Part shown: positions 21,625 through 63,744 of the stretch, one piece after another
Position numbering within the stretch: position 1 is the first letter of the stretch
How the letters are laid out: each line of letters opens with the position of its first letter
Virus record (IMG/VR): IMGVR_UViG_3300047440_000809
Span: 40,564-104,563 of that record
DNA: 64,000 nucleotides
Strand: one strand, 5' to 3'
Origin: a virus
Made by a program: the position numbers and the translations under genes
The notes under the pieces: generated by a model
What the model was told of the DNA's origin: nothing
What the model saw: only the letters and a program-made list of their open reading frames with translations
The model's database searches: none

Positions 21625-22383
21625 TCATGCGGCCTTTTTCTTGTCGCCACCCTTGAGCATCACGACGAGCACGAGACCGAGCGCGACGGCGCCACCGATC
21701 ATCAGGTACGACTGCTTCACGCGGCCCACGCCGGGGAGCTTGACGGACTTGCCACCGCCGCGGACCTTGTCAGCCACGTTCTGGACGGCATCGGCGGCCG
21801 CGTCCTGTGCCGGTTGCAGGTCGGTCACACCGGGTGGCGGTCCTTGATCGGCGGCAGCGGCCTGCGCGTCAGCGCCAGGGTCCGCGGGGGCCTCGCCGGA
21901 CTTGCTGAACCGGGAGAGCAGGTTCTGCATCACCGCCATGAAAACGGGGATGGCTGCTGCCACGACCGCCGGGGCGATGCCGAGCTGCACGTTCTCGTAG
22001 TAGCCGAGCATCGCCGCGTCCGAGCCGGCGAAGAGTGCCAAGATCGGCCCGTGCGGGAGCTGATGGTTGAGCGTGTGCTTCGTCCAGGACTTCGCCTCGG
22101 CAAGCTCCTGGGCGTTGGGCGTCTTCGACTTGCGCTTGTCCCACGCGAGCTTCACCGCGCGGCGGTGTTCGAGCCTGAGCACGAGACCTTTAATCGGTCG
22201 TGCTGCCTGGTGCGCTAGCCACTGCGTGGGCTTGATGAGCGTCCACTCGACAGGGAAGTAGGCCGCCTTCCCGACGACCTTCGCGCCCTTCTTGATGCCG
22301 TGGCCGGTGGCCTGTACGCCGCTCTTGATCCCTCGCCCGACAGACCGGATCGAGAACCCGAGCGGCGAGTTCGAGACGATCAC
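21625..22383 (-). CDS. membrane-anchored putative virion protein
   Basis: MIVSNSPLGF...; C-terminal TM plus KKK. Confidence 0.7.
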   Translation of the reverse strand: MIVSNSPLGFSIRSVGRGIKSGVQATGHGIKKGAKVVGKAAYFPVEWTLIKPTQWLAHQAARPIKGLVLRLEHRRAVKLAWDKRKSKTPNAQELAEAKSWTKHTLNHQLPHGPILALFAGSDAAMLGYYENVQLGIAPAVVAAAIPVFMAVMQNLLSRFSKSGEAPADPGADAQAAAADQGPPPGVTDLQPAQDAAADAVQNVADKVRGGGKSVKLPGVGRVKQSYLMIGGAVALGLVLVVMLKGGDKKKAA

Positions 22384-22386
22384 CGG

Positions 22387-22467
22387 TTACCGCAGCTTGA
22401 AGCCGATGAAGATGCTCGCGCCCGCGAGGAGCGCGCCGAACAGAATCTTGCCGTAGTCGCCTTGCAT
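22387..22467 (-). CDS. 26-aa membrane peptide
   Basis: MQGDYGKILFGALLAGASIFIGFKLR, with RBS. Confidence 0.5.
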   Translation of the reverse strand: MQGDYGKILFGALLAGASIFIGFKLR

Positions 22468-22481
22468 GGGTCGGAACCTTT

Positions 22482-23081
22482 CTAGTCGCCCGAGGACGAC
22501 TTCTTCTTTTTCTTGTGCAGGAGGACGTACCCGCCGATCCCGGCCGCCGCGACGATGCCGCCGATCAGCAGCCAGTGCTGCTTCTTCGGGCCCGGGACTT
22601 CCTGCCCCTCGGAGGCCGCCGACGCGTCCTGCGTGGGGCCGAGGTCGGCCGCGGGCGAGCCGGGCGCCACGGACGCCTGGGGGATCTGCGAGGGCATCGG
22701 GTTCAGGATTGCCTGTTGCTGCGTCAGCTGCGCTTGCGCCTGCGCGGCCTGCGCTGCCGCTGCCGCCTGCTGCGACGCCATGAGCTGTTGCTGAAGCATC
22801 TGGAGACGCGCCGCCGCCCGAGCGTCGTGTCCTGCGCGCCGCTGGAGGTCGAAGCGCTCGCGATCGTAGGCGCGCTGTGCGTCCCGCGCGCGGTTGATCG
22901 CGGCGAAGTCGATGACCGGACGGTAGATGGTGCGGACCGGGCCGGGCGTGTAGACCGTCCGCGGCTGCGCGTAGACCGGACGGGGAGGTGCGAAGGCGGG
23001 GCGCATGGGAATTGGTGCGCGATAGGCCGGGGGGCGATACGCCGAGCGCCAGGGTTGTGGTTGCGGGGTGGCTCCAATCAT
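22482..23081 (-). CDS. Pro/Gln-rich membrane-anchored putative virion protein
   Basis: C-terminal TM plus KKKKK; RBS AGGAG. Confidence 0.7.
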   Translation of the reverse strand: MIGATPQPQPWRSAYRPPAYRAPIPMRPAFAPPRPVYAQPRTVYTPGPVRTIYRPVIDFAAINRARDAQRAYDRERFDLQRRAGHDARAAARLQMLQQQLMASQQAAAAAQAAQAQAQLTQQQAILNPMPSQIPQASVAPGSPAADLGPTQDASAASEGQEVPGPKKQHWLLIGGIVAAAGIGGYVLLHKKKKKSSSGD

Positions 23082-23092
23082 CGGAAGGTCTC

Positions 23093-23440
23093 CTACTTTT
23101 TGAGCATGAAGAGGACGACGAGCGCCGCGCCGCCGATCAGCGCGAGGGGAAGCAGGTTGCCCTTCTTGACGGGGGCCATCGTCGCGGTGCCGTCGTCGTT
23201 CGCGACCTCATCACCCGTGGCGGGCGGTCCGGGCGGCATCTGGCCCGGCTGAGGCTGCGTGAACTGCTGGGCGTAATTGGCGTACGAGCCTGCACGGCCG
23301 CCGTATGCCTGACCAGCGGCAATCGCAGCCTGCTGCACCCTCGGATTCTGGATCGCCTTCGCGATGGCCCGGGTGCCGACGACGTGGGCGTGCACGATCG
23401 CGCGGAACGGGTTGAAGCCGAGCGACGAATTGACGATCAC
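23093..23440 (-). CDS. membrane-anchored putative virion protein
   Basis: Leaderless start MIVNSSLGF; C-terminal TM plus KK. Confidence 0.7.
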   Translation of the reverse strand: MIVNSSLGFNPFRAIVHAHVVGTRAIAKAIQNPRVQQAAIAAGQAYGGRAGSYANYAQQFTQPQPGQMPPGPPATGDEVANDDGTATMAPVKKGNLLPLALIGGAALVVLFMLKK

Positions 23441-23524
23441 GAAGACTATCCTACGGGCGACACGGCACACCCGTCAAATCGCCCGATTTGCCTCGGTCGC
23501 ACTCGCCGTGGCATTCTGTACTTC
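23441..23524. promoter_or_regulatory. divergent leaderless sigma70-type promoters
   Basis: Minus TTGACG-N18-TAGGAT-N7-GTG; plus TTGCCT-N18-CATTCT-N7-GTG. Confidence 0.65.
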
Positions 23525-24106
23525 GTGCTCCGCGACGCAACGGCACCGATGCTTCGTGCTCACCGCGTCGGCACGCTCGATGACCGCGTGAAGCTGCTCA
23601 CGCGGATGGTGTGGCTAGGCGCGCAGGCGGTAGACCCCCGGGAACCTCCCGTCGGGGGGCTACGTGATCCGAAGATGCGCGAGATCGGCCTGCGCGCCAC
23701 GCAGAGCTGTCCCGAGCGGAACGACATGTGCGAACTGGAAGCGATCTACACGTTCGTGACGATGACCGCGCCGGACGGTCACCCAAACGTGCGCTACACC
23801 GGCGACATCGCGCTCAAGGACACGTACCAGACGGCGTACCGGACCTTGCAGTATCGCGGCGGCGACTGTGACGACCACGCCGTGCTCAGCGCCGTGCTCG
23901 CGATGGAGAACGGCTTCCAGACGCGCTTCCGGATCACGTCGAACACCGGCGCGAGCTGGGACCACATCTACTGCATGGCGGGCTACCCGAAGAACGGCCC
24001 CACGCGCTGGATCGCGCTCGACACCACGCTCGGCCCGCGGCGCTTCGCAAAGCAGCCGCCCGAGGCCAAGCATCGCGATTTCAACGTCAGCGAAGTCACA
24101 CGATGA
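23525..24106 (+). CDS. transglutaminase-like cysteine protease, candidate maturation protease
   Basis: VRYTGD, GDCDD (Cys), HIY (His), WIALD (Asp). Confidence 0.8.
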   Translation: MLRDATAPMLRAHRVGTLDDRVKLLTRMVWLGAQAVDPREPPVGGLRDPKMREIGLRATQSCPERNDMCELEAIYTFVTMTAPDGHPNVRYTGDIALKDTYQTAYRTLQYRGGDCDDHAVLSAVLAMENGFQTRFRITSNTGASWDHIYCMAGYPKNGPTRWIALDTTLGPRRFAKQPPEAKHRDFNVSEVTR

Positions 24107-24315
24107 GTCGTGCCGGTGACACGACAGCGCTTTCGCTCCCGGACGGTGGCGTCATGGAGATCCCGTTGCCCGGGAGCAAGGGGCGCTTCGCCGTGCGTGC
24201 ACCTTCGCTGCTCGGGCAAGACGGCAGCTCGCGCCTTCCGATCGTCATTGGCATCGTGGTCGGCGTCGCTGTCGGTGTCGCGGCAACCGCCTGGTACATG
24301 AGCCGGCGGCGCTGA
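24103..24315 (+). CDS. small membrane protein
   Basis: LLGQ then TM plus RRR. Confidence 0.65.
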   Translation: MSRAGDTTALSLPDGGVMEIPLPGSKGRFAVRAPSLLGQDGSSRLPIVIGIVVGVAVGVAATAWYMSRRR

Positions 24316-24512
24316 TGCTCGGCGGACGGCCAGCACCTCCCGCGCGGCCACGGGAAGGGTTCGAGGTGTTCTGGATGCGGTTAGGACGTATCGTCATGAA
24401 GCAGTGCCAGCAGAAGGCCCACTGCGACGTCGTCATCACGCTCAAGGACGGATCGGTGCAGCTCGTGCGCGTGAACGAGTCGTTCCTACCGACCACGCTG
24501 CCCGACGTCTGA
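24315..24512 (+). CDS. hypothetical protein
   Basis: Coupled ORF. Confidence 0.5.
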   Translation: MLGGRPAPPARPREGFEVFWMRLGRIVMKQCQQKAHCDVVITLKDGSVQLVRVNESFLPTTLPDV

Positions 24513-24552
24513 GATTTGCCGGGTCGGCGGGCCCGGTGTTAGCCTGGTATCC

Positions 24553-25413
24553 GTGCTCGCGCAGGACGCACCGACGCAGTCGCTCTTTCCTCATCGCAAG
24601 CAGTGCGAGTGGATCGACCAGGGTCATGGGCTGTCCGCGCGCGTCTGTGACGATGGCGAAGTGCTCATGTGGCACGACGCCGAGACGCGCGAGACCTGGA
24701 TTCACGGCGAAACCCCGCCGAATAAGTGGCAGGTCTTTTTCCGCCGTCACCACAACTTCAACGGCTTCGGAGCGACGGAAGCGGCGGTCGGCGTGTGCCC
24801 TCCCCGACCGCATATCGCGCCGCGCCCGTCCTCGACCATTCAGCGCCTGCAAGCGGCAATCGTCGGGCTCGGGAAACGCGTCGGCGACACCATGCTGCGC
24901 ATCGCCTCGGACGGGCTCGTCGGTCCCCACACCGTCAAGGCGACCAATCGCGCGCTCTACATGTACGCCGGGGGCGGCGCAGCGCCGGCGCAGTTCACGA
25001 CGGGCGCGCTCACGCACGCCCAAGTCGTGGCATTCGCGCCGCAGCTCACTTCGATCGTGCAGCGTGCGCCCTACCCCGAGTCGCTGCACTCGACCAACGC
25101 CGCGACCTATTCTCCACCACCGCCAACCGCGCCGGCCTTGCCGTCGCAAGGAGCCTCGACGATGCCGTACTACCAGCCGGGACCCGCGTACTACCCGCCT
25201 CCGCCACCGCCGGGCTACGGGCCTGCCTACTACGGACCCCAGCGAGTCGGGCGTGGTGGGCTCCCCACGGACCAGGCGTCGGTCGACGTGCGTGCCTTCA
25301 TCCCGGCGCAGTACGAACACGTGCGGATCAATCCGGGCACGGTCGCGACGGTGATCGGCCTCGTCGTGATCGTGGCGCTGGTGTTGGACCGGAAGAAAAA
25401 GAAGGGAGACTGA
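24553..25413 (+). CDS. membrane-anchored protein with peptidoglycan-binding-like motif
   Basis: RLQAAI...DGLVGPHTVKA; C-terminal TM plus KKKK; leaderless promoter. Confidence 0.7.
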   Translation: MLAQDAPTQSLFPHRKQCEWIDQGHGLSARVCDDGEVLMWHDAETRETWIHGETPPNKWQVFFRRHHNFNGFGATEAAVGVCPPRPHIAPRPSSTIQRLQAAIVGLGKRVGDTMLRIASDGLVGPHTVKATNRALYMYAGGGAAPAQFTTGALTHAQVVAFAPQLTSIVQRAPYPESLHSTNAATYSPPPPTAPALPSQGASTMPYYQPGPAYYPPPPPPGYGPAYYGPQRVGRGGLPTDQASVDVRAFIPAQYEHVRINPGTVATVIGLVVIVALVLDRKKKKGD

Positions 25414-25415
25414 CC

Positions 25416-25892
25416 ATGAGCCTCGTTGTCGTTCCGACCAGCACGGGGTATCCGACGGGGGGCTACAGCCTTCCCGAGCGTGTGTCGTTCGCGATCTCGG
25501 ATACGGACGGGACTGGCGGGACCATCTACATCAACGGTCAGGGGGTCAAGAACGGTGACGTCGCGGGCGCGTATGACCTCAAAGACATCTTCGTGTCGGC
25601 CGGTCTGCTATTCAGCTCCACCCCGCTGCTCGGACCGTTTCGTCTTCTGAAGCCCGGATCGAGCCTCCTGGACGTGCAGAACCAGCTGCTCAAGGGGCTC
25701 AGCTTCAGCTTCTACGGTGTCACCGCCAACGCGCCCGCGCCGCTGAACCTGCGCTTCGGAACACTGAACGCGATCGGCGGCCAGCCGGACAGCATCCCCT
25801 TCCTGGAGATCATCGCGCCGAACGGCGGCGAGGGATACACCGGCGACACCTGGCGCATCGACATCAACCTCCGCCACTCGATCACGAACTAG
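25416..25892 (+). CDS. beta-rich putative virion protein
   Basis: RBS; alternating hydrophobic strands. Confidence 0.55.
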   Translation: MSLVVVPTSTGYPTGGYSLPERVSFAISDTDGTGGTIYINGQGVKNGDVAGAYDLKDIFVSAGLLFSSTPLLGPFRLLKPGSSLLDVQNQLLKGLSFSFYGVTANAPAPLNLRFGTLNAIGGQPDSIPFLEIIAPNGGEGYTGDTWRIDINLRHSITN

Positions 25893-25898
25893 GCGGCC

Positions 25899-26129
25899 AT
25901 GGCCCGGCGGATCAAGGGCAGCTTCTGCGAGCGCGTGATGCTCCCCAAGAGCGCATTCGACCGTAAGAGCTTTCGGTGGAAGCGGAGCGGCCGTTCGTGG
26001 GTGCTGACGGGCTGTCGACGCAGGCACTTCAAGGGCGGCCGCTGCGACAACGGGCTGCGTGCACACGTGGTACTCGTGAAGTCGAACGGGTCGTGCCCGA
26101 TGGGCGGTCGTGCGGTCCGGAAGGGTTGA
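25899..26129 (+). CDS. small basic Cys-rich protein
   Basis: MARRIKG... Confidence 0.6.
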   Translation: MARRIKGSFCERVMLPKSAFDRKSFRWKRSGRSWVLTGCRRRHFKGGRCDNGLRAHVVLVKSNGSCPMGGRAVRKG

Positions 26130-26315
26130 CGTGGATAAGCCGGATCGCGAAATCACGTGCCGCTGCGGCGGGAGCATCTGCTTCTGGGATCGCGATAGGC
26201 GCGTCGCCCATACGGTTCCGCTTTGCGCCTGGTACGAGGCCGCAGTGGAAACTGCGGGAGGACAGCGCGATCCAGGGGTGATCATCGAGACCGATGCAGG
26301 GCGGTACGTGCGAGG

Positions 26316-26567
26316 ATGATCGTCCAGCCGTGCGGGCTGCCCCGCGAGACCGTCGCGCGCATGCAGTGGGAGGCCGGGCTACCGCCCCACGTGATTCAGG
26401 AGACGCTCACCCAGCGCCCCCTCGGTAGCTTCTCCACCGACGCCCGCCAGGCGATCACCGTGTCGCCCGACTACTTCGTGCGTTGGTACACCCTCAAGTC
26501 AATCGGGCTTGGAGTCGCGGTCGGGATCATCGGGTACCTGCTTGGGCGTGCGACGGCGAAGCGCTGA
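26316..26567 (+). CDS. small membrane protein
   Basis: RPLGS...C-terminal TM. Confidence 0.55.
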   Translation: MIVQPCGLPRETVARMQWEAGLPPHVIQETLTQRPLGSFSTDARQAITVSPDYFVRWYTLKSIGLGVAVGIIGYLLGRATAKR

Positions 26568-27004
26568 CCGCAGCCACTTCAGCATGTCGATGAGGCCGTT
26601 GATCCGGATGATTACCGCCGCCTCGACGAGGCGCACGTCGGCCAGCTCCTTCTTCAGCGCTTCGACTTCGACCAGCAGCGCTGCGTAGCGCGGGTCTTCC
26701 TTCGCGTCGGGCACACGGTCAGTGTACTCGGCGCTGTCGCAACACGAACATGAGCCCACCGACGAGCATGAACACGCCGGCGTTCACGACGGCTGCCGCG
26801 GTGTCCTTCGTCGCATCGTGCTCACCGTCCATCGCCTTGCGCGCGAGTACGCCGGCGATGAAACCCGCGACGCTGCCGATGCTCACGGGAATCATGAAGT
26901 CGGAGAGACGCACGGGCTGTGCGTCGGCGAGGAGGTAGCGACTCACGCGTTCCACTCTAACGCCAATTTGACAGCACCCCAAACTCGCCCGCATACTGGC
27001 CTCC

Positions 27005-27098
27005 ACATAGCGGTTCTCTCACCGGAACCGCCACTCTGAGCGAACCAGAGCAACTGGGCGCTTTCCGTCGGACCTCCCGACAGGAAGCGCCCTTTTTC
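27005..27098 (+). ncRNA. promoter-proximal structured leader ending in an intrinsic terminator (copy B)
   Basis: TTGACA-N18-CATACT promoter; ACATAG start, two hairpins, GGGCGCTTTCC...GGAAGCGCCC-TTTTT. Confidence 0.6.
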
Positions 27099-27122
27099 TA
27101 TTTCAACCACAGGAGCCAAAAG

Positions 27123-27773
27123 ATGCTGACCCCATCAGGACCAGGCGGACGCGGCTCCATCCCTGCGCTCGTGATGCGCACGGGTCTCATCCAGCCGGTG
27201 TCGCCCGATAACGCCCGGCGTGATATCAGCGCGCGGCACGTCGACAACGTGACGACCTACGTGACGGGGCAGCTGCCCTACACGCCGCCCGGTCTCCCCG
27301 CCTCGATGCCGCCGATCGTGCCCGTGCCGGCACCGCCGTCCAACGCCACGAGCGCCGTCGCGGCCACCGTCGTGGCGACGCCGCCGCGCCCGCTGCCGAA
27401 CGCACCCGCCGCGCTCCCGGGCCCCGGACACTCGGGGCTGCACCACTGGCATCACGCCCAACGGCGCATGCACCCGATGGTCGCCGAGATCCAGCGGCTC
27501 CACCCGCACGCGAACATCCACGGCTCCTCGGAGCCCGAGCTGGGTGAGTTCGGCGGCTTCCCGCTCGCGAAGTTCGAGATCGCCGCGAGCGTCCCGGCCA
27601 TCACCGCCCAGAGCGCGGCGATCAACCTCCGCCTCGCCGCCCGCGCGCTCTACGAGCGCGGTCTCGGCGCCCTGCCCGCCCAGCTGGTGGGCGGTCCGCT
27701 CGCGGCGCTCATGCAGGGCGGCGCCGTCGAGCTGCATTTTCAGAATGGGGTCGTCGTGAGGGCGACGCCCTGA
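27123..27773 (+). CDS. Pro-rich putative virion protein
   Basis: RBS AGGAG; ELGEFGG motif. Confidence 0.65.
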   Translation: MLTPSGPGGRGSIPALVMRTGLIQPVSPDNARRDISARHVDNVTTYVTGQLPYTPPGLPASMPPIVPVPAPPSNATSAVAATVVATPPRPLPNAPAALPGPGHSGLHHWHHAQRRMHPMVAEIQRLHPHANIHGSSEPELGEFGGFPLAKFEIAASVPAITAQSAAINLRLAARALYERGLGALPAQLVGGPLAALMQGGAVELHFQNGVVVRATP

Positions 27774-27817
27774 AGCAGTAGCACCCAACCCTCGATGACC
27801 CCACCAAGGAGAGACAC

Positions 27818-27925
27818 ATGAAGAGACACTGCCGGTACGGCGTGAACAAGCGCACCCACCGCTGCCTGAAGTCGAAGCGGTCCCACCCGCTCTCCGGGCA
27901 CCGCCGGCGTCGGCGGCGGCGGTAA
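27818..27925 (+). CDS. 35-aa protamine-like peptide
   Basis: RBS AAGGAG; MKRHCRYGVNKRTHRCLKSKRSHPLSGHRRRRRRR. Confidence 0.65.
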   Translation: MKRHCRYGVNKRTHRCLKSKRSHPLSGHRRRRRRR

Positions 27926-27982
27926 CGAGGGGGAAGCGAAACAAAACCGTCAACCCTCACGCAGCAAGAAAGAAGACTTCCA

Positions 27983-28498
27983 ATGGCTCGTCACAGATTT
28001 CGTGGCTTCGGAGAAGGCGACAGCCACGCTGCCATCGCAGGACCGCTGATCGGCGGTGGTGCGACGCAGATCGGCATCATGCTGGCGCACCTTCACGCCA
28101 GAAAGAACCCCGCAGCGCTCCGGCACGCTGGTGTGCACGGCGCGGTGGTGGGGTTGCTCGTGGGCGGTGGCTTGGCCATGACGAAGTCCTATCGTCAGAC
28201 CGGCTACTCGGCTCTCGCGACGGTCGCCATCATGACCATCCCTCGCATCCTGGAGGGATTCATGGGCCTCGGCCACCGCGAAGAGACGGCCGCGATGCAC
28301 GGCCTCGGCATCATCACGCCGCAGGCGCTCCAGGGCGCGGGTGAAGAGCCCGTCGTGCAGCTCCTCGACTCCAACGAGATGAACGGCGCCCTCGGCGTTC
28401 ACGTCGCTGAGGAGTTGCACGGAGCGGGCGGCAACGCGAGCGAGTACGTGGAGATGATGGGTTCTGGCTTCGGCCACAACTTCCTCCAGGCCGCCTGA
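27983..28498 (+). CDS. membrane protein with multiple hydrophobic-x-G-x-G motifs
   Basis: 3 TM-like segments; FRGFG, FMGLG, MHGLG, LQGAG, LHGAG, MMGSG. Confidence 0.7.
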   Translation: MARHRFRGFGEGDSHAAIAGPLIGGGATQIGIMLAHLHARKNPAALRHAGVHGAVVGLLVGGGLAMTKSYRQTGYSALATVAIMTIPRILEGFMGLGHREETAAMHGLGIITPQALQGAGEEPVVQLLDSNEMNGALGVHVAEELHGAGGNASEYVEMMGSGFGHNFLQAA

Positions 28499-28501
28499 TC
28501 G

Positions 28502-28537
28502 AAGCGGCGCTCGGGGGCTACCTCGGGCGCCGCTTTT
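28502..28537 (+). terminator. hairpin plus T-tract upstream of the capsid gene
   Basis: AAGCGGCGCTCGGGG-gcta-CCTCGGGCGCCGCTTTT. Confidence 0.55.
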
Positions 28538-28658
28538 CAACCCTCTGCACGTCGGCATTCTCCCGCACCGACGTGGGTGACAACGCGGGGAACACACCAT
28601 TCAGCTTCGAGACCACACCGGCCCAGCCGACCCTCGGGGCAGAAACGAGACAGCTACC

Positions 28659-29447
28659 ATGTCGAATCCCGGCACCCTGACCGTTCGCGTCCGCGGCGTT
28701 CCGTTCCCGATCGAGTTCGCGGACTGGACCCACGACCGCCTCTACCACACCGTCGAGTTCGAAGGGACCGACGCCCAGATCATCCAGACGTTCATCGGAG
28801 CGGCTGGCTCTCCGATCCCGGGCGGGCAGCGCGTCCTGACGATCGTCGACACCAACATCCCGCGCTCGGGTGACACCGGGTTGCAGGAGGGTTGGGAGAT
28901 GCTGATCTACAGCATCCAGATCCAGGTCACGCGCGAGATGGCGCGGAACGCGGCTCAGCAGAGCTTCGCTCTCCAGGACCAGACCAACGTCGGGGGGATG
29001 ACCCAGTTCTCCCGGAACGTGCACCTCGGCGGGTACGACCCGACCAACACGGCCGGCGGCGTGCTGTTCGACTTCATGCGGAAGACCTACCACCGCTTCC
29101 AGGTGAACCAGAAGGTTCAGTCCGAGGGGCCGGTGGAGAAGTACCCGCAGGGGTCGGGCATCTCGGTGTTCGGCACCACCACCAACCTGGAGAACGCCAA
29201 CAACGGTCTCCCGTCGCCCCGCGACCAGTCGGCGTTCGTCCTGCCGATCTGGCTGCGGCCGAACATCGCCTACGTGGGCATCCTCGCCCCCCAGGCGGCG
29301 CTCGGCATCGGCGGCGCCTCGGCGGCGGTGGGCCCGCCCTTCGCGACGGTCGAGGGGTACTTCGACTGGTCGGGCATCCCGGCGACGAACCTCGGGTTCG
29401 ACGTGCGGGAGACCCTGGAGGGTCTGCTGAAGCGCCCGGTCGTCTGA
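28659..29447 (+). CDS. putative major capsid protein, jelly-roll type
   Basis: Beta-rich 262 aa; LYHTV...DTN..G..GL..GWEMLIYSIQI pattern; strong C-ending codon bias; followed by a strong terminator. Confidence 0.5.
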   Translation: MSNPGTLTVRVRGVPFPIEFADWTHDRLYHTVEFEGTDAQIIQTFIGAAGSPIPGGQRVLTIVDTNIPRSGDTGLQEGWEMLIYSIQIQVTREMARNAAQQSFALQDQTNVGGMTQFSRNVHLGGYDPTNTAGGVLFDFMRKTYHRFQVNQKVQSEGPVEKYPQGSGISVFGTTTNLENANNGLPSPRDQSAFVLPIWLRPNIAYVGILAPQAALGIGGASAAVGPPFATVEGYFDWSGIPATNLGFDVRETLEGLLKRPVV

Positions 29448-29472
29448 TCGACGCAGCAACCAACTAGCAAGA

Positions 29473-29509
29473 GGGCGCGGTGGCTTCGGCTGCCGCGCCC
29501 TTTTTCTTT
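29473..29509 (+). terminator. intrinsic terminator
   Basis: GGGCGCGGTGGC-TTCG-GCTGCCGCGCCC-TTTTTCTTT. Confidence 0.85.
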
Positions 29510-29569
29510 GCTCCGACGGCGCACGCCGCGGATTTGCCTTCCACCCCCACCCCGTCCTATCATCTCCTC

Positions 29570-30061
29570 ATGAGTCTTTCTCCCGGCCTCGAAGCGATGC
29601 TCAGTCAGCTCGGCCCGTATCTCAAGGGCTTCATGGACAAGATCGAGCCGCTGCTGAACCAGCCGGTCGTTCGCGTGCCGTACTCGCTGACGCTCGCGGA
29701 GAGCACCGTGATCCCGCCGGGTCAGCAGGGCTTCGTTCTCTCGAACAACGACTTCAACAACAACCTGGAGTGGCCGATCGAGATCCACAACGTGAAGTTC
29801 TCGCAGGACGTCGCGCACAGCTTCCGCGACTGGCGCGTGAACTTCCAGGACCAGATCGTCAACCAGCCGATGCAGAAGGCGAACAGCGGCTCGATGGTCG
29901 CCGAGCTGGTCGAGGACAACACAGGCATGTGGCAGTGGCAGTACCCGTGGGTCGTGCGCCCGAAAGGCGGTGCGATTCTCATCGTCGCCACCAACCTCGA
30001 CACCGTCAACCCCATCACGGTCGACCTGAGCCTCAACGGCTACCTGATGATCCCGCGCTGA
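29570..30061 (+). CDS. putative second or minor jelly-roll capsid protein
   Basis: Beta-rich 163 aa; leaderless start after TTGCCT-N18-TATCAT-N6. Confidence 0.5.
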   Translation: MSLSPGLEAMLSQLGPYLKGFMDKIEPLLNQPVVRVPYSLTLAESTVIPPGQQGFVLSNNDFNNNLEWPIEIHNVKFSQDVAHSFRDWRVNFQDQIVNQPMQKANSGSMVAELVEDNTGMWQWQYPWVVRPKGGAILIVATNLDTVNPITVDLSLNGYLMIPR

Positions 30062-30074
30062 GCCTACGCTGACC

Positions 30075-30554
30075 ATGCGCAGCTTCGGCCAGATGCTCGG
30101 TCGCGGCCACGGTGGTGGCGGCGCAGACCTGGGCAACCCGAGCCCCGGGATCATCCCCGGCGTTCGCACGACGCCCAACGTCTACGAGCCGGCGCCGAAT
30201 GCGGAGCCCGTCGGTGCCGACACCGGTGCGCCGCCGCGCACGCAGTTCTTCAGCAGGCTCGTGGTACCGGCCTCGACCACCAAGGACAACGCCACGCTGC
30301 TCGTCCTGGGAACCCCCGAAAACCGCGTCGCGCTCATCACGGCGCCGGCGGTGGGCTTCACGGTCTACATTGGCGACTCGGGTGTCTCGCCCGACAACGG
30401 CGCGCCGCTCACCCCCGGTGTCCCCTACGAGGCCATCCTGCCGGGGCTCCAGCCGCTCTACGCTGTGACGGACGCGCCTGTGTACCTTCGTGTGGGCGTG
30501 CAGGTCGCGATCGTGCTGGCGGCAGAGCGACAGCGGAAAACGGACGGCCTGTGA
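30075..30554 (+). CDS. putative beta-rich virion protein
   Basis: Adjacent to capsid genes; VYIG...G.PL.PG. Confidence 0.5.
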   Translation: MRSFGQMLGRGHGGGGADLGNPSPGIIPGVRTTPNVYEPAPNAEPVGADTGAPPRTQFFSRLVVPASTTKDNATLLVLGTPENRVALITAPAVGFTVYIGDSGVSPDNGAPLTPGVPYEAILPGLQPLYAVTDAPVYLRVGVQVAIVLAAERQRKTDGL

Positions 30555-30555
30555 A

Positions 30556-31125
30556 GTGCTGCCCCTTGCGGTGGTCGCGCTCACCGGGCTCGTCATCGCC
30601 GCAGTCGGCCTGACGCACGGCCCGAACCTCAGTCACGTCGCCGCCGGTCTCGGGCTGCCGCTCCTGTACGTGCAGCAGGCGGCCAAGTGGGCGCGCCGGC
30701 GCGGGCTGCCGCTCGAATGGGTGCTGTCGACCATCCTCGTGGAGAGCGGCGGCAAGCCGAACGTGCGTGGTGACGCTGACGGCCGCTCGGTGGGGCTCAT
30801 GCAGGTGAACGTCATGACGCCAGCGCACGTGCGAGACGGCGTAACAGTCGCCTTGATGCTCGACCCGGCCAAGAACATCGAGTGGGGCACCAAGTACCTG
30901 AAGCAGTTCCGCGACGACGTACTGACGGCGCTCGGGGGGCGCAACCCGCCTATCCCCCTCGACCAGATCGTGCGTCTCGCCTACAAGGGCCCCACGACGG
31001 TGGAGGACGCGCTTAGACGTGGGCAGAACCCAGCAAACATCTCGTGGGCACCGGAGGCGCTAGCGCGGTGGAGGAACGCTCTGGCACGCGTCAGCGCTTT
31101 GACCCGCGGCCGATTGACGGCGTAG
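30556..31125 (+). CDS. lytic transglycosylase (SLT) with N-terminal membrane anchor
   Basis: ILVESGG, GLMQV, DPAKNIEWGTKYL, LAY. Confidence 0.88.
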   Translation: MLPLAVVALTGLVIAAVGLTHGPNLSHVAAGLGLPLLYVQQAAKWARRRGLPLEWVLSTILVESGGKPNVRGDADGRSVGLMQVNVMTPAHVRDGVTVALMLDPAKNIEWGTKYLKQFRDDVLTALGGRNPPIPLDQIVRLAYKGPTTVEDALRRGQNPANISWAPEALARWRNALARVSALTRGRLTA

Positions 31126-31134
31126 GATGAAGGC

Positions 31135-31620
31135 ATGAAGGGCATCCTCGGCTTCCTGCTCGCGGTCGGCGCGGTCGGTGGAGGCGTGTTCTTGATGCGT
31201 GGCGGGAAGCTGCCGGGGTTGTCGGGCGCACGTGGGCGCCGGCGCCGCACGCAGCTGCGGGGCGAACACGAGATAGGTGAGCTGAAGCTCTATATCGACA
31301 ACGAAGGTGATCTGTACCGGCAGCAGACGACGCCGATCATGAAGAACCTCGCCACGAAGCTGGCGAAGGGCATCTACGACCGCGCGAAGGCGGAGAAGCT
31401 GTGGATGTACCTCGTCGAGAGCGGCGCCAAGAAGTACGAGCAAGAGTTCGGCAGCCAGTTCACCTCCGAGCGCTCCGGCGTGCCGTGGCACAAGATGTTC
31501 TCGATGGCTGACCGCAAGACCGTCGCCAAAGAGTTGAACGACGATTTTCTCGCCGCCTGGAAGGATGGTCAGTACGACCACCTCCTCCCCAAGAAGTACG
31601 CGCGCGCGCCCGGCCGCTGA
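31135..31620 (+). CDS. N-terminal TM plus LSG/RRRR/LRG linker plus globular phage domain
   Basis: ELKLYIDNEGDLY; leaderless promoter TTGACC-N18-TAGGAT-N6. Confidence 0.7.
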   Translation: MKGILGFLLAVGAVGGGVFLMRGGKLPGLSGARGRRRRTQLRGEHEIGELKLYIDNEGDLYRQQTTPIMKNLATKLAKGIYDRAKAEKLWMYLVESGAKKYEQEFGSQFTSERSGVPWHKMFSMADRKTVAKELNDDFLAAWKDGQYDHLLPKKYARAPGR

Positions 31621-31659
31621 GTTTTGACCCCCAGGCACCCTCGGGTGTAGCCTAATCCC

Positions 31660-32121
31660 ATGCTCAGCCGCCTGTACGTGGTGCAGATGCCCGAGGAGAC
31701 CCCGACGACTCCCCTCGACATCTTGGTGCAGTCGGCTCCCGGATCGGTCGACGCGCCCGCGCTCCCCGGCGAGGGGAAGTATTACGAGTGGCGCGGGCGG
31801 CCACTGCGCCTCGAATCGCTAGCGGCAGACGGCGTCGCGGGCGGCTTCGTGCCGCGCCTGCGCCTCGGGTTCGAGGTGTCGATCACGGCGTACGTGGGGG
31901 CGGTATCGGCGAACCTCCCCGGCGTGCAGCTCTCGGAGTCGCTCGCGGGAGACCTCTCGTCCACGGACAGCGGCCCGTCGATCTCGATCCCGCTGCTCTC
32001 CGACCCGGGCGGCGAGCCCGCGATCCGGTTGGTGGGAAGCGCCGACACCGCGGGGCTCTTCTACCTCGTGTCGCTCCAGTGCCCCGAGGCGAAGGAAGAC
32101 AACGCGCCGCGGGGGAGCTGA
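31660..32121 (+). CDS. hypothetical virion-region protein
   Basis: Leaderless promoter TTGACC-N18-TAGCCT-N6-ATG. Confidence 0.6.
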   Translation: MLSRLYVVQMPEETPTTPLDILVQSAPGSVDAPALPGEGKYYEWRGRPLRLESLAADGVAGGFVPRLRLGFEVSITAYVGAVSANLPGVQLSESLAGDLSSTDSGPSISIPLLSDPGGEPAIRLVGSADTAGLFYLVSLQCPEAKEDNAPRGS

Positions 32122-32273
32122 CGCATGAAGCTCTGCTGGGCGGTCGAGCAAGTGCGTGGAGGAAGGTGGAAGCGCACCGTGCGCATGCCGACGAAGGCGT
32201 TGGCCGATACCACGGCACGGAGCCTCGAACGCAAGTGGGGTTCAACCACGCGCGTGAAGAACGTGTGCAAGCG

Positions 32274-32732
32274 ATGATCTCCCGCTCCAACCTCGGCGCC
32301 GGCCACGCGCTCGTTTACGTCGCGCCGGACGACAACCCGAACTCCGGGGGTGGGCCCATCCGCCGCGCCCCCGGCTCGAACGTCGTCTACGCACACGCCG
32401 GCAGCCGCGTGGAGCGCTCGCCGCTCCTGGTCGTGAACGAGGCGGAGCCCGGCGCGGGCTGGCCCGAAGACCTCTCCGCCACGCGCATGTTCCTGCCCGA
32501 CGGGCGCCTCGTGCCGCAGACCTCCGCCGTCGTGGACATGTTCCGCGGCGCCGGCGAGCCCGCCACCGTGGTCTACGCGCGGCCGCCCGTTACCGGGCTG
32601 CGAGCGCTCGTGCCGGCAATCGGCATGTTCGCGGGCGCGGCCGCCGGCTACAAGTTCTCGACGCGCCGCCCGGGGTGGGGCACGCTCGGCGGTGCAGTCG
32701 TGGGGGGCATCCTCGGGCTGATCTTCAGGTAG
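32274..32732 (+). CDS. membrane protein (2 C-terminal TMs)
   Basis: SNLGAG, FRGAG motifs. Confidence 0.6.
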   Translation: MISRSNLGAGHALVYVAPDDNPNSGGGPIRRAPGSNVVYAHAGSRVERSPLLVVNEAEPGAGWPEDLSATRMFLPDGRLVPQTSAVVDMFRGAGEPATVVYARPPVTGLRALVPAIGMFAGAAAGYKFSTRRPGWGTLGGAVVGGILGLIFR

Positions 32733-32745
32733 GAGCCACGCGCCC

Positions 32746-33405
32746 GTGATCGACAAGGACGGCCGGCGCCTCATCGCGATTCGCAACGGCCTCGGCCGCA
32801 CGACGACGGCGCCCGAGGACGCGCAGCTCCTAGCGCGGATGCAGACGAACCGGCAGGCGCGCGCCGTGCTCGGCGTCGTAGCGCAGTACCTGCGCCGGGG
32901 CTACGAGGTCGCGCAGACCGTGCCGTCCTTCATCTCGCCGATCGACGGGACCAAGCTGGCGGCAGAGGCGATGCGAGGCAATCTCGACTCCGATAACCGC
33001 TGGTCACAGAAGGTCTACGCCGCCATTCCGGACGACGACGCCCCGATCAGCGACTTGAACCGCAAGAAGGTCACGATCGCCCTGACGCAGGCGCGTGGCA
33101 CGCTTGCGCTCGTGAGCAGCAGCGCTGAGGACTTGAATCGCGGCCTGTTCGGCTCGCTCTCGGATCTGCTCGCGGAGCACTTGTTGCCCTCATGGGCCCA
33201 GCCGAACCCGAAGGCCCGCGACCTCGCGCTCAAGATCGGCATCGGTGTGGCCGTGCTCGTGGGGCTTATCGTCGCCGGCAAGCTCGTACACACCATCGTC
33301 CTCGGCCGATCGACGGCGCTCGGTGAGGCCGAGGCCGCTGTGATGGCGCTCGCGAACGCACAGCGGCGAAAACACCATGCCCGGTCCGTGATCTCCGTGT
33401 CGTAG
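32746..33405 (+). CDS. membrane protein
   Basis: RBS AGGAG; NGLG; C-terminal TM. Confidence 0.65.
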   Translation: MIDKDGRRLIAIRNGLGRTTTAPEDAQLLARMQTNRQARAVLGVVAQYLRRGYEVAQTVPSFISPIDGTKLAAEAMRGNLDSDNRWSQKVYAAIPDDDAPISDLNRKKVTIALTQARGTLALVSSSAEDLNRGLFGSLSDLLAEHLLPSWAQPNPKARDLALKIGIGVAVLVGLIVAGKLVHTIVLGRSTALGEAEAAVMALANAQRRKHHARSVISVS

Positions 33406-33447
33406 GCGGTTTTGGGCCTCACACGTCCCTCGGTGTAAGATGCTGGG

Positions 33448-33624
33448 ATGCAGTCTGGCCAGCCGAAGTCGAACGTAGGAACCTGGGCCGCCGTGCTTGG
33501 TGGTGTGGCCGTGCTCGGCGGTGTCGCGGCGGCTGCGCTCGGTGCCGGCGGCAGGAAGCCCGCACCGAAGTTCGGCGGAGCGCGCCGCCCCATCGCGAAG
33601 AAGCCGTGCGGCTGTGGCCGGTGA
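33448..33624 (+). CDS. 58-aa membrane peptide ending KKPCGCGR
   Basis: Leaderless promoter; hand translation. Confidence 0.55.
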   Translation: MQSGQPKSNVGTWAAVLGGVAVLGGVAAAALGAGGRKPAPKFGGARRPIAKKPCGCGR

Positions 33625-38032: not shown

Positions 38033-39355
38033 ATGGGTGATGGACCTCTGCCCGGCGCCGAAGGCGGTGGCTTCCTAGGACCCACCGCGGTGCCGAGCGG
38101 CGGCGCGCAGGGCACGCAGGGCCCACAGGGCGCGCAAGGTTCGAGCGGAGGCCCACAGGGGGCTCAGGGCAGGCAAGGCGCACAAGGGTCGCAGGGGGCG
38201 CAGGGCGCGCGTGGCGTCCAGGGGTCACAGGGGTCGACGGGGGCCGGGACGCAAGGGGCTCAGGGCGACACCGGCGCGCAGGGGGCCCAGGGTGCCTCTG
38301 CCGGTAGCACGCTCGCGGCGCTCTACACGTTCGGGCTCGGCGACGTCCCCACCGTCGACAACCGGCTCGTGGGGGCCATCTCGAACATCTACTTCGACAC
38401 CGACGGCCGCGTGGTCATCGAGACCAACACCGGCCACGAGGGGAACACCGATCCATTCGTGCGGCTCATTCACGACGTCCTCGCCCAGGGCGAGCAGACC
38501 TTCAACAACCAGGAGATCCACTACCTCCCTGCCGCGGGGTTGAACGGGCTCGCGGCCACGACGCCGACGGGGTTCCGCACCGACTACGACCTCGTGGACT
38601 CGGGCGGCTCGACGTTCCACTTCGCGCACGAGCGCTACGAGAGTGGCAACGTGGTCATGGGCAACCCGTTCACACCTGACCCGTTCCCCGTGCCATCAGG
38701 CGCGCCGTACATCGCGCACGAGGTCTACCTGCTTCAGCCCGACGGCTCGACGGAGACGCTGCACCAGTGGAATGCTCTCGGCACGTACACGCAGAACGCC
38801 TACGTGCCGAACGGCGGCGTGCCAGAGACGCTCGCTACCATCATGACGCTCATGCACGCGAACGCGGGAGGCGGCGTGCTCCAGGTCGGCAGCGGCGTCG
38901 GATGGACCGTCAACTGGACGTCGGGGACGCTGCCCGTGCTCGGACGGCTGAACGTAATCCTCGACAACAACGGCTTCCTGACGGAGGAGGCCCATTGGCT
39001 CTTCCAGGCGCAGCGGTCCGGCGCTGGCGTCGTCGACATCGCACGGATGGACCCCAACCTGGGCATCGACAGCCTCCTCGGGTTGTTCACGTTCAGCAGT
39101 GACGGAACCGCCGCGAGCGCTGCCGCAGCCGGAGCCGCCAAGATGATCTACAACGACACGCGGAAGACGGCACAGCTCAGCGTCGACACCGGTGGCTATG
39201 TTGATCTCTTGACCGGATCTGCTGTCGCCAACGGCGGTGTGACAGTGACTTTCGGCGCCGCCACAGCGCCGGCAGGCAGCAGCGCAACGCCTACTCGGTG
39301 GCTCAGCGTGCCGGACGGCGCCGGTGGTACCTTCACAATGGCCAGCTTCAGTTGA
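38033..39355 (+). CDS. second collagen-like fibre protein (short repeat)
   Basis: Same [12 protein letters not shown] N-terminus; GAQ repeats. Confidence 0.8.
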   Translation: MGDGPLPGAEGGGFLGPTAVPSGGAQGTQGPQGAQGSSGGPQGAQGRQGAQGSQGAQGARGVQGSQGSTGAGTQGAQGDTGAQGAQGASAGSTLAALYTFGLGDVPTVDNRLVGAISNIYFDTDGRVVIETNTGHEGNTDPFVRLIHDVLAQGEQTFNNQEIHYLPAAGLNGLAATTPTGFRTDYDLVDSGGSTFHFAHERYESGNVVMGNPFTPDPFPVPSGAPYIAHEVYLLQPDGSTETLHQWNALGTYTQNAYVPNGGVPETLATIMTLMHANAGGGVLQVGSGVGWTVNWTSGTLPVLGRLNVILDNNGFLTEEAHWLFQAQRSGAGVVDIARMDPNLGIDSLLGLFTFSSDGTAASAAAAGAAKMIYNDTRKTAQLSVDTGGYVDLLTGSAVANGGVTVTFGAATAPAGSSATPTRWLSVPDGAGGTFTMASFS

Positions 39356-63195: not shown

Positions 63196-63744
63196 TCACG
63201 CCGCCGCCGTCTGCTTTCGCTTGCGCACTGCGCTAGCGGCCATCGCCAGGATGAGCAGAACGGACCCACCACCCACTACCCACCAGATCCAGCGGTTCTC
63301 GTCGCCGAGCGCCCCCGAGGATGCATCCGCGCCGGGTGTGGGCGCGAATGACACAGCGGTTCTAAGAGCACGCAGCGCCTTCTGCGCGGACGCAGGCGTC
63401 GGGATCACACCCCCGTGAGACTCGACGTACTGGGTGACTTGCGTCGCGAGGTAGTTGACGTGCTGACGGACGTACGTGAGTGACATCGGCGCGGGGGCGC
63501 CGAGGTAGGTCGCGAAGGCATAGTTCGTGGCCTTGACAGTGGCCGGACCTATGGCGCCGTCGACCTTGAGCCTAGACAGCGTCGAGTCACCGTTCGCAGT
63601 ACCGAGCGCCTTCAAGGCGTTTTGGAGCAGCGTGGCGGGCGATATGCGTGAGCGGATCTGCTGCCGCGCGATCACCTGTGCATTCTTATGCTGAAGCAGA
63701 TCGAGCTGCTCGGCAGTCGGCTGGCCAAATCCGCCGGTGATCAT
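63196..63744 (-). CDS. membrane-anchored protein with peptidoglycan-binding-like motif (paralog of 24553-25413)
   Basis: LLQNAL...VDGAIGPATVKATN; C-terminal TM plus RKRK. Confidence 0.7.
   Translation of the reverse strand: MITGGFGQPTAEQLDLLQHKNAQVIARQQIRSRISPATLLQNALKALGTANGDSTLSRLKVDGAIGPATVKATNYAFATYLGAPAPMSLTYVRQHVNYLATQVTQYVESHGGVIPTPASAQKALRALRTAVSFAPTPGADASSGALGDENRWIWWVVGGGSVLLILAMAASAVRKRKQTAAA

Follow-up and report, generated by a model that had tools for sequence, protein, structure and literature searches.

A transglutaminase-fold enzyme and two glycine-motif features in a putative capsid and membrane-protein module of a soil virus

Does a cysteine enzyme encoded among glycine-rich, putative virion proteins process these proteins at a shared glycine motif? 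Adenain, a cysteine enzyme of the clan CE fold encoded in a morphogenetic module, acts on short glycine-containing sites, (M/I/L)XGX-G and (M/I/L)XGG-X, in several virion proteins, one of them membrane-active. For the viral DNA studied here, the initial annotation proposed an analogous proteome-wide hydrophobic-x-Gly(-x-Gly) processing or cross-linking code, served by a Cys-His-Asp enzyme of the transglutaminase fold.

The cluster resembles a capsid and membrane-protein module

The window, i.e. the whole stretch of DNA analysed, is the final 64 kb of a 104.5-kb viral contig (66% G+C), and the virus is a member of a widespread group of soil viruses with genomes of ~90-140 kb. Of the 21 proteins in its cluster (main features in Table 1), 10 contain a 19-residue segment of strong hydrophobicity (mean Kyte-Doolittle score ≥2.0). 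The cluster resembles a capsid and membrane-protein module from a virus of ~100 kb, and from this gene content we read the virus as tailless and with an internal membrane. The candidate major capsid protein displays 65-90% identity across 42 related loci, and its ESM-Atlas leads, to PM2 P2 and PRD1 P3, are weak. Residues 76-170 of the 286-aa protein match ORF31 of the Salisaeta phage SSIP-1 (E=8e-4), which we take to be a putative lysozyme of the GH108/PG_binding_3 type. The gene order from the enzyme through proteins of 53 and 48 aa to the 286-aa protein is the same in three related loci (L002, L004 and L006). Collagen-like proteins are encoded shortly downstream (33630-35714 and 38090-39355).

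Table 1. Coordinates of the main features in the window
Feature	Coordinates	Strand	Remarks
Family A paralogue, 252-aa tail-anchored membrane protein, start MIVSNSPLGF	21625..22383	-	GTG start is the first codon after a stop
Family A, 115-aa tail-anchored membrane protein, start MIVNSSLGF	23093..23440	-	Head-to-head with enzyme gene; C-terminal hydrophobic segment
Transglutaminase-like Cys-His-Asp enzyme, 185 aa, soluble	23549..24106	+	PF01841; triad; fold
Tail-anchored protein, 286 aa, peptidoglycan-binding-like middle part	24553..25413	+	Syntenic with enzyme gene
Family B, 58-aa tail-anchored protein, start MIQ...PLGSF	26391..26567	+	Start revised from 26316
199-aa protein, invariant LGE-F/W joining variable Pro-rich half to conserved C-terminal domain	27174..27773	+
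Gly-rich membrane protein, 171 aa, basic start MARHRFRGFG, Phi-x-G-x-G / LG units recurring there and in the acidic tail	27983..28498	+
Candidate major capsid protein	28659..29447	+	Strongest conservation in cluster
159-aa protein, start MRSFGQMLG, LG at residues 8-9	30075..30554	+
Membrane-anchored SLT lytic transglycosylase (cell-wall enzyme within cluster)	30556..31125	+	Pfam SLT E=9e-11; PHROG transglycosylase
Family C, 152-aa protein, start MISRSNLGAG, Gly-zipper-like C-terminal anchor	32274..32732	+	Weak Gly-zipper_YMGG match
182-aa tail-anchored protein outside cluster, same kind of start (MITGGFGQ)	63196..63744	-	Among the 5 tag-pattern ORFs; weak PG_binding_3 match

A conserved transglutaminase-fold enzyme

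The presence of a Cys-His-Asp transglutaminase-fold gene inside the cluster, as first annotated, is borne out: the gene matches Pfam Transglut_core (PF01841) at 29.9 bits, above the cut-off of 23 (E=7e-7), and C107, H139 and D158 are invariant in an alignment of 31 sequences. Its length is that of the public gene call, which we placed as in Table 1 (initially 23525-24106). Homologues form 183 clusters at E≤0.001, with 52-99% identity among the 120 matches listed; the median identity is ~67%, versus medians of ~40-55% for most neighbours, and in several relatives an intein-like insert sits precisely at the catalytic Cys. The protein is intact, highly conserved and active-looking, and its AF2 model is confident (pLDDT 91.8). 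We found in it no wall-binding domain, signal peptide or membrane anchor, and no strongly hydrophobic segment.

The best structural matches of the model include the putative proteases 3kd4 (Z 12.6) and 3isr (9.8) and the bacterial transglutaminase-like cysteine proteinase LapG (9.0), all at only 12-18% identity, together with TglA (9.4) and the methanogen-phage enzymes PeiP (9.0) and PeiW (8.9). Likeness to the NlpC/P60 wall peptidases is weak (Z 3.4), and weak profile matches were obtained to PeiW and 4u65. True transglutaminases score similarly (4xz7, Z 9.3; factor XIII, 9.1; TG2, 8.6), the fold being common to proteases, isopeptidases and transglutaminases alike. Tgl cross-links Bacillus spore coats, and the enzyme could likewise be a true transglutaminase whose Gln-Lys isopeptide bonds would lend stability to proteins of the capsid, of the membrane or of collagen-like fibres. 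The equivalent fold, the collagen-like genes just downstream and the frequency of Gln in many of the N-terminal leaders described below are consistent with such a cross-linker; however, most small prokaryotic members of the superfamily are hydrolases, the Gln in the leaders is not invariant and a conserved Gln/Lys pair was not identified, and we consider this explanation improbable.

The sole phage relative of the enzyme detected in GenBank by tblastn is gp34 (E=3e-4; 28% identity, 64% of the query covered) of SSIP-1, a tailless, membrane-containing phage (PMC6356626). Gp34 likewise has a transglutaminase-like core, in which Cys, His and Asp follow one another as in the enzyme here, but it is a 304-aa protein with a hydrophobic C-terminal stretch read as a membrane anchor, and the SSIP-1 genome measures 44 kb. 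The annotation of gp34 as a 'structural protein' argues for a virion location of the enzyme.

The broad glycine motif reflects composition

A six-frame scan recovered all the motif strings initially listed, each at its stated position and in a plausible coding frame, with the exception of PLSGH (27887), which is in frame with the 171-aa ORF but lies upstream of its first start codon and is thus probably untranslated. Against a composition-matched background, in which residues were shuffled within each protein, the 20 cluster proteins other than the 171-aa protein hold 9 [FMLIV].G.G motifs for 9.11 expected (p=0.58), 6 [MIL].G.G for 5.3 expected (p=0.45) and 46 [LFM]G for 46.4 expected; in the remaining genome, Phi-x-G-x-G occurs 67 times for 66.8 expected. 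The marginal excess of [MIL].G.G over the whole cluster (11 versus 6.0, p=0.04) therefore rests on the 171-aa protein. In orthologue alignments, the mean conservation of Gly after L/F/M is 0.67, versus 0.61-0.70 for the other three classes of Gly (Mann-Whitney p=0.32). Orthologues do not conserve the cited sites LLGQ, FNGFG and NGLG, nor the FGG of ELGEFGG, which is kept in 0 of 15 orthologues of the 199-aa protein whereas the preceding LG is kept in 15/15. No ΦxGxG motif is found in the candidate capsid protein or in its downstream neighbour (29597-30061).

Outside the 171-aa protein there is thus no enrichment over background, the outcome that the initial annotation itself took as refuting, and Gly after L/F/M is not specially conserved. 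Apart from that protein and the positional pattern described below, the broad hydrophobic-x-Gly list is a chance product of a Gly/Ala-rich proteome, and no code for cleavage at Gly extends across the virus. A full adenain-like code across the virion proteins is extremely unlikely, even though nearly all of its strings are present and the whole-cluster count is marginally high. The enzyme half of the proposal holds, and what is shared with adenain is the idea of a morphogenetic-module cysteine enzyme and of several virion proteins bearing short sites that contain Gly. The analogy is one of mechanism only. The order of catalytic residues is unlike that of adenain, the fold is transglutaminase-like and the adenain-type consensus is enriched in one protein only.

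The 171-aa protein family is enriched in the motif

This one protein contains 8 [FMLIV].G.G motifs for 1.48 expected, a count reached by 0 of 5000 shuffles, and across 90 homologue clusters the family averages 5.07 motifs per protein versus 1.67 expected. The enrichment of the family is real. A 26-sequence alignment shows G10, G109, G138 and F163-G164 to be invariant. Conservation does not extend to LQGAG and LHGAG in this alignment, although many of the 90 homologues retain a Phi-x-G-x-G form at the LQGAG site. [LFM]G occurs within the first 16 residues of 89/90 homologues, and the tail of the 171-aa protein carries two LG-I/V-I/H-T/V-P/A-E units.

An N-terminal [LF]-G tag marks tail-anchored membrane proteins

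[LF]G falls at residues 6-12 in 7 of the 21 cluster proteins, where shuffling predicts 1.66 (p=0.0004), versus 16 of 142 proteins elsewhere in the genome (Fisher p=0.014). This positional tag is real. In the form M-I/L-x-(polar)2-8-[LF]-G it is common to three families of tail-anchored membrane proteins (A, B and C; four genes here) and is kept in their relatives, and two further families have [LF]G equally far from the start. Across the full 104.5 kb of the record, no more than 5 coding-like ORFs match the pattern, and the most hydrophobic 19-residue window lies near the C-terminus in 5/5 of them, strongly so in 3.

The leaders vary in both length and sequence, but the tag is retained in orthologues whose identity elsewhere is 35-55%. 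The N-terminal [LF]G of the 252-aa protein is kept in 5/5 orthologues, as is its internal QLGI. Orthologues of the 115-aa protein, whose start here lies 7 nt after a promoter-like GTAGGAT, keep N-terminal x-[LF]-G-F-S/N and lie divergently beside the enzyme gene (L002, L003, L013 and L046), this adjacency being found in 5 distinct genomes. Family B orthologues (55-56 aa) start with M/V-L/I-L/I-Q-x-LG-D/S-F, family C keeps its [LF]G in 8/8 orthologues, and about half of the alignment rows for the 159-aa protein start with MRS/T-x-x-x-I/M-LG.

It is very improbable that the tagged proteins are simply diverged paralogues of one tail-anchored ancestor, their N-terminal likeness being a functionless relic. 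In N-terminus and anchor the 252-aa protein is clearly a paralogue of the 115-aa one, and all tagged proteins have one architecture; between families, however, the remainder has diverged beyond recognition and yet the tag persists across ~40 related loci, which argues for selection on the tag itself. The positional pattern formed no part of the initial annotation.

Roles of the enzyme and of the tag

None of the results obtained links the enzyme to the Gly motifs or to the tag, and for these three real features, the enzyme, the 171-aa family and the tag, we tentatively prefer separate roles. We infer that the enzyme, carried in the virion, would attack the host wall during entry or exit by cutting its peptide or isopeptide bonds, alongside the SLT transglycosylase and the 286-aa protein encoded three genes downstream. 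It would resemble in this PeiW and PeiP, virus-encoded Cys-His-Asp endoisopeptidases of the same fold (120-126 residues aligned) that act on archaeal pseudomurein; these differ in having wall-binding repeats and are only 12-17% identical to it. The tag, like the repeats in the tail of the 171-aa protein, may be an assembly contact, with the N-termini of the tail-anchored proteins facing the capsid shell and docking there.

Separate roles are favoured because motif enrichment is confined to one protein and the LG glycines are not specially conserved, because SSIP-1 has an enzyme homologue while no N-terminal LG tag was found in its proteins, and because orthologues on a related 98.5-kb contig (G001) keep N-terminal LG/FG although no Transglut_core match was found there, weak evidence as that contig is 88% complete. 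The two wall-related proteins in the same module favour a wall enzyme. This preferred reading is weakened by the lack of wall-binding domain, signal peptide and anchor, by the weak NlpC/P60 likeness and by a conservation higher than that of most neighbouring proteins. Inteins occur mostly in essential replication or morphogenesis proteins, so that, given an intein-like insert at the catalytic Cys, a core role in morphogenesis would be a better fit than a lysin. The preferred reading is weakened, too, by the placing of the [LF]-G: several proteins have [LF] (P2) and Gly (P1) at a constant distance of 6-11 residues from the start, as a leader-cleavage site for a papain-like enzyme could have.

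The enzyme would then be a narrow maturation protease that trims tail-anchored membrane proteins after [LF]-G, taking off N-terminal leaders of 6-11 residues, and that perhaps also cuts the 171-aa tail and the 199-aa protein at its LGE-F/W junction. New N-termini, e.g. an amphipathic helix, could be exposed in this way, by analogy with adenain acting on protein VI. Short shared motifs marking several phage virion proteins for trimming have precedents, with other folds and motifs and in tailed phages: in staphylococcal phage 80alpha, the capsid and scaffold proteins lose their N-terminal leaders to the host cysteine protease Prp, and T4 gp21 cuts at L/I-x-E. LapG, which is periplasmic and calcium-dependent, cleaves its substrate close to the N-terminus, at a single short and defined di-alanine site. 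The positional enrichment of the tag, its restriction to five ORFs and its retention in divergent orthologues point to such a protease, as do the proximity of enzyme and family A genes, the invariant triad, the inserts at the catalytic Cys and a hydrophobic P2 that suits the usual S2 preference of papain-like enzymes. We nevertheless regard it as rather unlikely: SSIP-1 has a homologous virion protein but no tag, G001 keeps N-terminal LG/FG without detectable enzyme, and adjacency proves little because the entire module is syntenic. Within family A, moreover, the residues after Gly are conserved as well as those before, running on as G-F-S-I/V-T, which fits a structural element.

A gene cluster largely outside known protein families

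The window covers bases 40564-104563 of a 104,563-bp IMG/VR viral record with ~66% G+C, a composition at which spurious ORFs are plentiful. Gene calling therefore relied on codon usage, with a model learned from long ORFs of the record itself; 21 genes (hereafter the cluster) were called from 21.6 to 33.7 kb. Pfam and PHROGs recognised two of their products, a Transglut_core protein (the enzyme) and a membrane-anchored SLT transglycosylase; PHROGs returned no match for nine of the ten cluster proteins scanned, and 13 of the 16 scanned with Pfam had no match or one below the curated cut-off only. A strongly hydrophobic 19-residue segment, mostly C-terminal, is found in 10 of the 21 proteins. 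Among the proteins encoded outside the cluster are a family A DNA polymerase that is fused to a uracil-DNA glycosylase, helicases (SNF2 and SF1), many glycosyltransferases and a HerA/DUF87-type ATPase, and a Pfam scan of the whole record found no match to the HK97 capsid or Terminase_6N families.

The most conserved protein of the cluster is the candidate major capsid protein. Soil and sediment metagenomes contain relatives of it, 65-90% identical, at 42 loci whose contigs reach ~150 kb; two related records, of 89 and 94.5 kb, carry direct terminal repeats. The AF2 model of this protein, built from an alignment of 6 sequences only, gives no usable fold (pLDDT 29.7), and in ESM-Atlas it and the protein encoded at 29597-30061 have weak leads only, towards jelly-roll capsid proteins (PM2, PRD1 and P23-77). 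A tailless, membrane-containing virus is a reasonable but unproven frame for these data, and ~100 kb would be unusually large for a virus of such kind; our literature search found nothing relevant on large tailless soil phages. Two genes for collagen triple-helix repeat proteins adjoin those for an Ig-domain protein, methyltransferases and glycosyltransferases, and their products may be glycosylated surface fibres.

Features of the record and of related loci (window positions unless a locus is named; for starts, the position of the start codon)
Feature	Position	Strand	Remark
Family A, 252 aa	21625-22383	-	
Family A, 115 aa	23093-23440	-	
Enzyme	23549-24106	+	185 aa, public gene call
Peptidoglycan-binding-like protein, 286 aa	24553-25413	+	
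Family B, 58 aa	26391-26567	+	
Gly-rich membrane protein, 171 aa	27983-28498	+	
Candidate major capsid protein	28659-29447	+	
Membrane-anchored SLT transglycosylase	30556-31125	+	Pfam/PHROGs
Family C, 152 aa	32274-32732	+	
Collagen triple-helix repeat protein	33630-35714	+	Pfam E=1e-29
Collagen triple-helix repeat protein	38090-39355	+	Pfam E=8e-6
Tail-anchored protein, 182 aa	63196-63744	-	PG_binding_3, E=0.009
HerA/DUF87-type ATPase, 603 aa	L008:7664-9475	-	whole record (G000)
Enzyme gene with insert	L002:3300-4250		same contig as L024
Tagged coding-like starts, in cluster	22383(-), 23440(-), 26391(+), 32274(+)		
Tagged coding-like start, outside cluster	63744(-)		
Starts with GT(T)AGNNT	23440(-), 24553(+), 26946(-), 31135(+), 31660(+), 33448(+), 38033(+), 40774(-), 20143(+)		

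Glycine motifs follow composition outside one protein

The initial annotation had proposed a proteome-wide Gly cleavage code, which should appear as an enrichment over background. The motif strings on which it was based are present in the proteins at the places described, with the exception of PLSGH, which lies upstream of its ORF's first start codon. When residues were shuffled within each protein as a control for composition, the whole cluster displayed a marginal excess that was gone once the 171-aa Gly-rich membrane protein was removed, and that is thus due to this protein alone; for [FMLIV].G.G the remaining cluster proteins, like the rest of the genome, stand at the shuffle expectation. 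The proposed proteome-wide code thus fails the test that the initial annotation had set for it, and the broad Gly-motif claim is a composition artefact.

Gly-motif counts against composition-matched shuffles (in the whole-cluster counts the 171-aa protein was given a start that makes it shorter than in its own count)
Set	Motif	Observed	Expected	p
Whole cluster	[MIL].G.G	11	6.0	0.04
Whole cluster	[FMLIV].G.G	15	9.9	0.07
Rest of genome	[FMLIV].G.G	67	66.8	0.51
171-aa protein alone	[FMLIV].G.G	8	1.48	reached in 0/5000 shuffles
Cluster without 171-aa protein	[FMLIV].G.G	9	9.11	0.58
Cluster without 171-aa protein	[MIL].G.G	6	5.3	0.45
Cluster without 171-aa protein	[MIL].GG	9	5.4	0.09
Cluster without 171-aa protein	[LFM]G	46	46.4	0.54

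Orthologue alignments drawn from up to 42 related loci revealed no special conservation of Gly after L, F or M (0.67, compared to 0.61-0.70 for other Gly; p=0.32). Several of the cited sites are lost in orthologues (LLGQ kept in 0/5, FG of FNGFG in 1/7, FG of ELGEFGG in 0/15, NGLG in 1/5), and LQGAG and LHGAG are not conserved in a 26-sequence alignment. Others are retained (SPLGF 5/5, QLGI 5/5, PLGS 6/7, LG of ELGEF 15/15, NLGAG 8/8); as about one-third of all aligned Gly are conserved at ≥90%, some such sites are expected by chance. In the adenain system, sites are distributed across several virion proteins, whereas [MIL].G.G and [MIL].GG give no such enrichment here outside the 171-aa protein (p=0.45 and 0.09). 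We consider a proteome-wide code very improbable, and loose Gly motifs in high-G+C viral proteomes need composition-matched controls before any cleavage-code reading.

The 171-aa protein belongs to a family of 90 homologue clusters, with a mean of 5.07 Phi-x-G-x-G motifs per protein compared to 1.67 expected from composition; LQGAG-like forms return at the LQGAG site in many of the 90. In the 171-aa protein, an acidic tail comes after hydrophobic segments rich in Gly. The N-terminal F-G (MARHRFRGFG) occupies an invariant position and is present in nearly all homologues, and invariant as well are the C-terminal G-F-G and two L-G, each at the head of one copy of a duplicated unit, LG-I/V-I/H-T/V-P/A-E. 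Within the acidic tail, an LG-V-I-T-P-E-E-like unit is present twice, and in the distant homologue P0084 the two copies are nearly identical. A complex prediction for the enzyme and this tail (residues 85-171), performed without controls, scored 0.00 and counts neither way on binding.

The enzyme belongs to the transglutaminase-like superfamily

That the cluster holds a Cys-His-Asp transglutaminase-fold gene, as first annotated, was borne out. The protein matches Pfam PF01841 with 29.9 bits (cut-off 23, E=7e-7), the triad C107 (GDCDD), H139 (WDHI) and D158 (LDTT) is invariant in 31 aligned sequences, and the AF2 model is confident (pLDDT 91.8). Homologues form 183 clusters at E≤0.001, 52-99% identical among the 120 listed and most of them already annotated as PF01841. 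Profile, ordered conserved triad and core fold together place the enzyme in the transglutaminase-like superfamily of the papain-like clan. NlpC/P60 membership was discarded with a Z of 3.4 only, and a C39 peptidase with the match to Transglut_core and to no other Pfam family at E≤0.1. Adenain (Peptidase C5, clan CE) differs in the order of Cys, His and Asp and in Pfam family; no adenain or Ulp1-type structure is among the fold matches listed for the model, which is positively placed in the transglutaminase-like superfamily.

The putative proteases 3kd4 (Z 12.6) and 3isr (9.8) are matched by the model together with LapG (9.0), CPR-C4 (8.4), PeiP (9.0) and PeiW (8.9; rmsd 3.5 Å, 120-126 residues aligned for these last two), while TglA, true transglutaminases and PNGase are within Z 8.4-9.8. 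These matches of the model span the whole superfamily and single out no one activity. A cross-linking transglutaminase, one of the activities within this range, seems improbable to us. With PeiW and PeiP, the enzyme has a transglutaminase-fold catalytic domain in common, but unrelated activities score alike and the match therefore does not give function. Pfam sees only a catalytic core in the enzyme, and the peptidoglycan-binding-like protein is encoded three genes downstream.

An N-terminal [LF]-G tag marks putative membrane proteins

[LF]-G at residues 6-12 occurs in 7 of the 21 cluster proteins, compared to 1.66 expected (p=0.0004), and in 16 of 142 proteins outside the cluster (Fisher p=0.014 for the difference). 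A strict form of this tag (Met, I/L, V/S/Q/A/T/I, 1-8 residues, [LF]-G-[FASDQ]) is found in only 8 ORFs over all frames of the 104.5-kb record; five are coding-like, and in all five the most hydrophobic stretch is near the C-terminus, strongly hydrophobic in three. The tagged protein outside the cluster is tail-anchored, starts with MITGGFGQ and has a weak PG_binding_3 match. The same three families recur in related loci with the tag intact and with leaders that vary in length and sequence, the tag reading x-[LF]-G-F-S-I/V-T in family A, Q-x-LG-D/S-F in family B and x-LG-A/S-G-Y in family C. A relic of paralogy, as another origin for a tag common to several proteins, appears quite improbable.

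Two known leader types were considered and rejected. Type IV prepilin-like leaders (G|F-T-L-I-E) are followed, after the Gly, by a Glu at +5 and by a hydrophobic helix of ~20 residues, both absent here, where G-F-S-I/V-T is followed by polar or basic residues; double-glycine bacteriocin leaders have 15-30 residues ending in GG, GA or GS, compared to 6-11 residues ending in [LF]-G.

Several start codons, among them the one of the 115-aa family A protein, are preceded at 6-7 nt by a GT(T)AGNNT element, which supports the called starts. This promoter-like element, often with a G+C-rich 5' side, lies 6-9 nt before the start, leaves no room for a Shine-Dalgarno sequence and probably acts as a late promoter from which leaderless mRNAs are made. 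In the 286-aa peptidoglycan-binding-like protein, ~68 N-terminal residues precede FNGFG here and in the related loci L002, L013 and L023; comparison with L004 and L046 suggests that these residues are missing from their orthologues, which would start close to LG.

Roles of the enzyme and of the tag

We tentatively favour separate functions, in which the enzyme would be a virion-borne peptidase acting on the wall and the tags would be assembly contacts. The SLT enzyme and the 286-aa protein belong to the same module as the enzyme, and for wall cutting PeiW/PeiP are an equally good precedent.

A narrower link between enzyme and motif, a protease that removes the leaders, is possible, though we hold it to be rather unlikely. 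It is suggested by the nature of the tag, in which Gly follows a hydrophobic residue and the distance to the start is fixed, by the divergent adjacency of the family A and enzyme genes in five distinct genomes, and by a conservation of the enzyme that is unusually high for the module. However, the whole module is syntenic, so that adjacency says little, and conservation in family A is as high after the Gly as before it. Comparison with other genomes also argues against this link. The related record G001, to which L005 belongs (98.5 kb and 88% complete), gave no match to the transglutaminase core at E≤1, yet retains the N-terminal LG/FG in three orthologues; G002, a relative as divergent as G001, has such a match. 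Conversely, the Salisaeta phage SSIP-1, the only GenBank phage with a homologue of the enzyme, lacks the N-terminal tag.

SSIP-1 is a tailless, membrane-containing phage, and reviews class it with those PRD1-like viruses that have two capsid proteins (PMC6356626, PMC4958249). Its enzyme homologue, gp34, is annotated as a structural protein and has a C-terminal hydrophobic stretch that may be a membrane anchor. When all predicted proteins were compared by tblastn with the SSIP-1 locus, the enzyme and the 286-aa protein were the only ones with relatives there. The enzyme is the one conserved catalytic protein common to the two viruses.

In its full form, the protease reading would make the enzyme responsible for maturation in a bacterial virus that is large, tailless and membrane-containing. 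Virion-membrane proteins with a tail anchor would lose their 6-11-residue leaders, clipped after [LF]-G, and the Gly-motif tail of the 171-aa protein would be cut as well. The enzyme would be a functional analogue, on a different fold, of adenain acting on protein VI; we regard this reading as unlikely. If it is true, we know of no earlier maturation protease from a prokaryotic virus with such a capsid. PRD1 and other bacterial phages with a membrane are considered to assemble with no such enzyme, and the maturation proteases that we know in the jelly-roll-capsid lineage all belong to viruses of eukaryotes (adenoviruses, virophages, giant viruses and polinton-like elements); a literature search found nothing relevant on a transglutaminase-like capsid maturation protease. 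Were the narrow leader-protease reading true, site-specific virion maturation would have arisen independently on another fold in widespread ~100-kb soil viruses. Tag, 171-aa family and enzyme are concrete and cheap to test by experiment, and even if the leader-protease reading fails, the N-terminal LG tag offers a new marker, open to test, by which a set of membrane proteins in these viruses can be recognised.

An insert at the catalytic Cys in relatives

The enzyme gene of L002 contains an insert of ~150 aa between GGD and CDDH, with Cys first and His-Asn last, and with the catalytic Cys of the enzyme as its +1 Cys. From these residues the insert appears intein-like; it scores 23 bits with the intein splicing-domain profile PF14890, below the cut-off of 35.8. 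In L004 and L006/L042, where only the C-terminal junction was read, His-Asn or Arg-Gln is followed by Cys-Asp-Asp-His, and in L013 the gap between the two halves of the enzyme gene appears sufficient for such an insert. No insert interrupts the enzyme gene of the window or of L003. An insert at the catalytic Cys marks this site as highly constrained.
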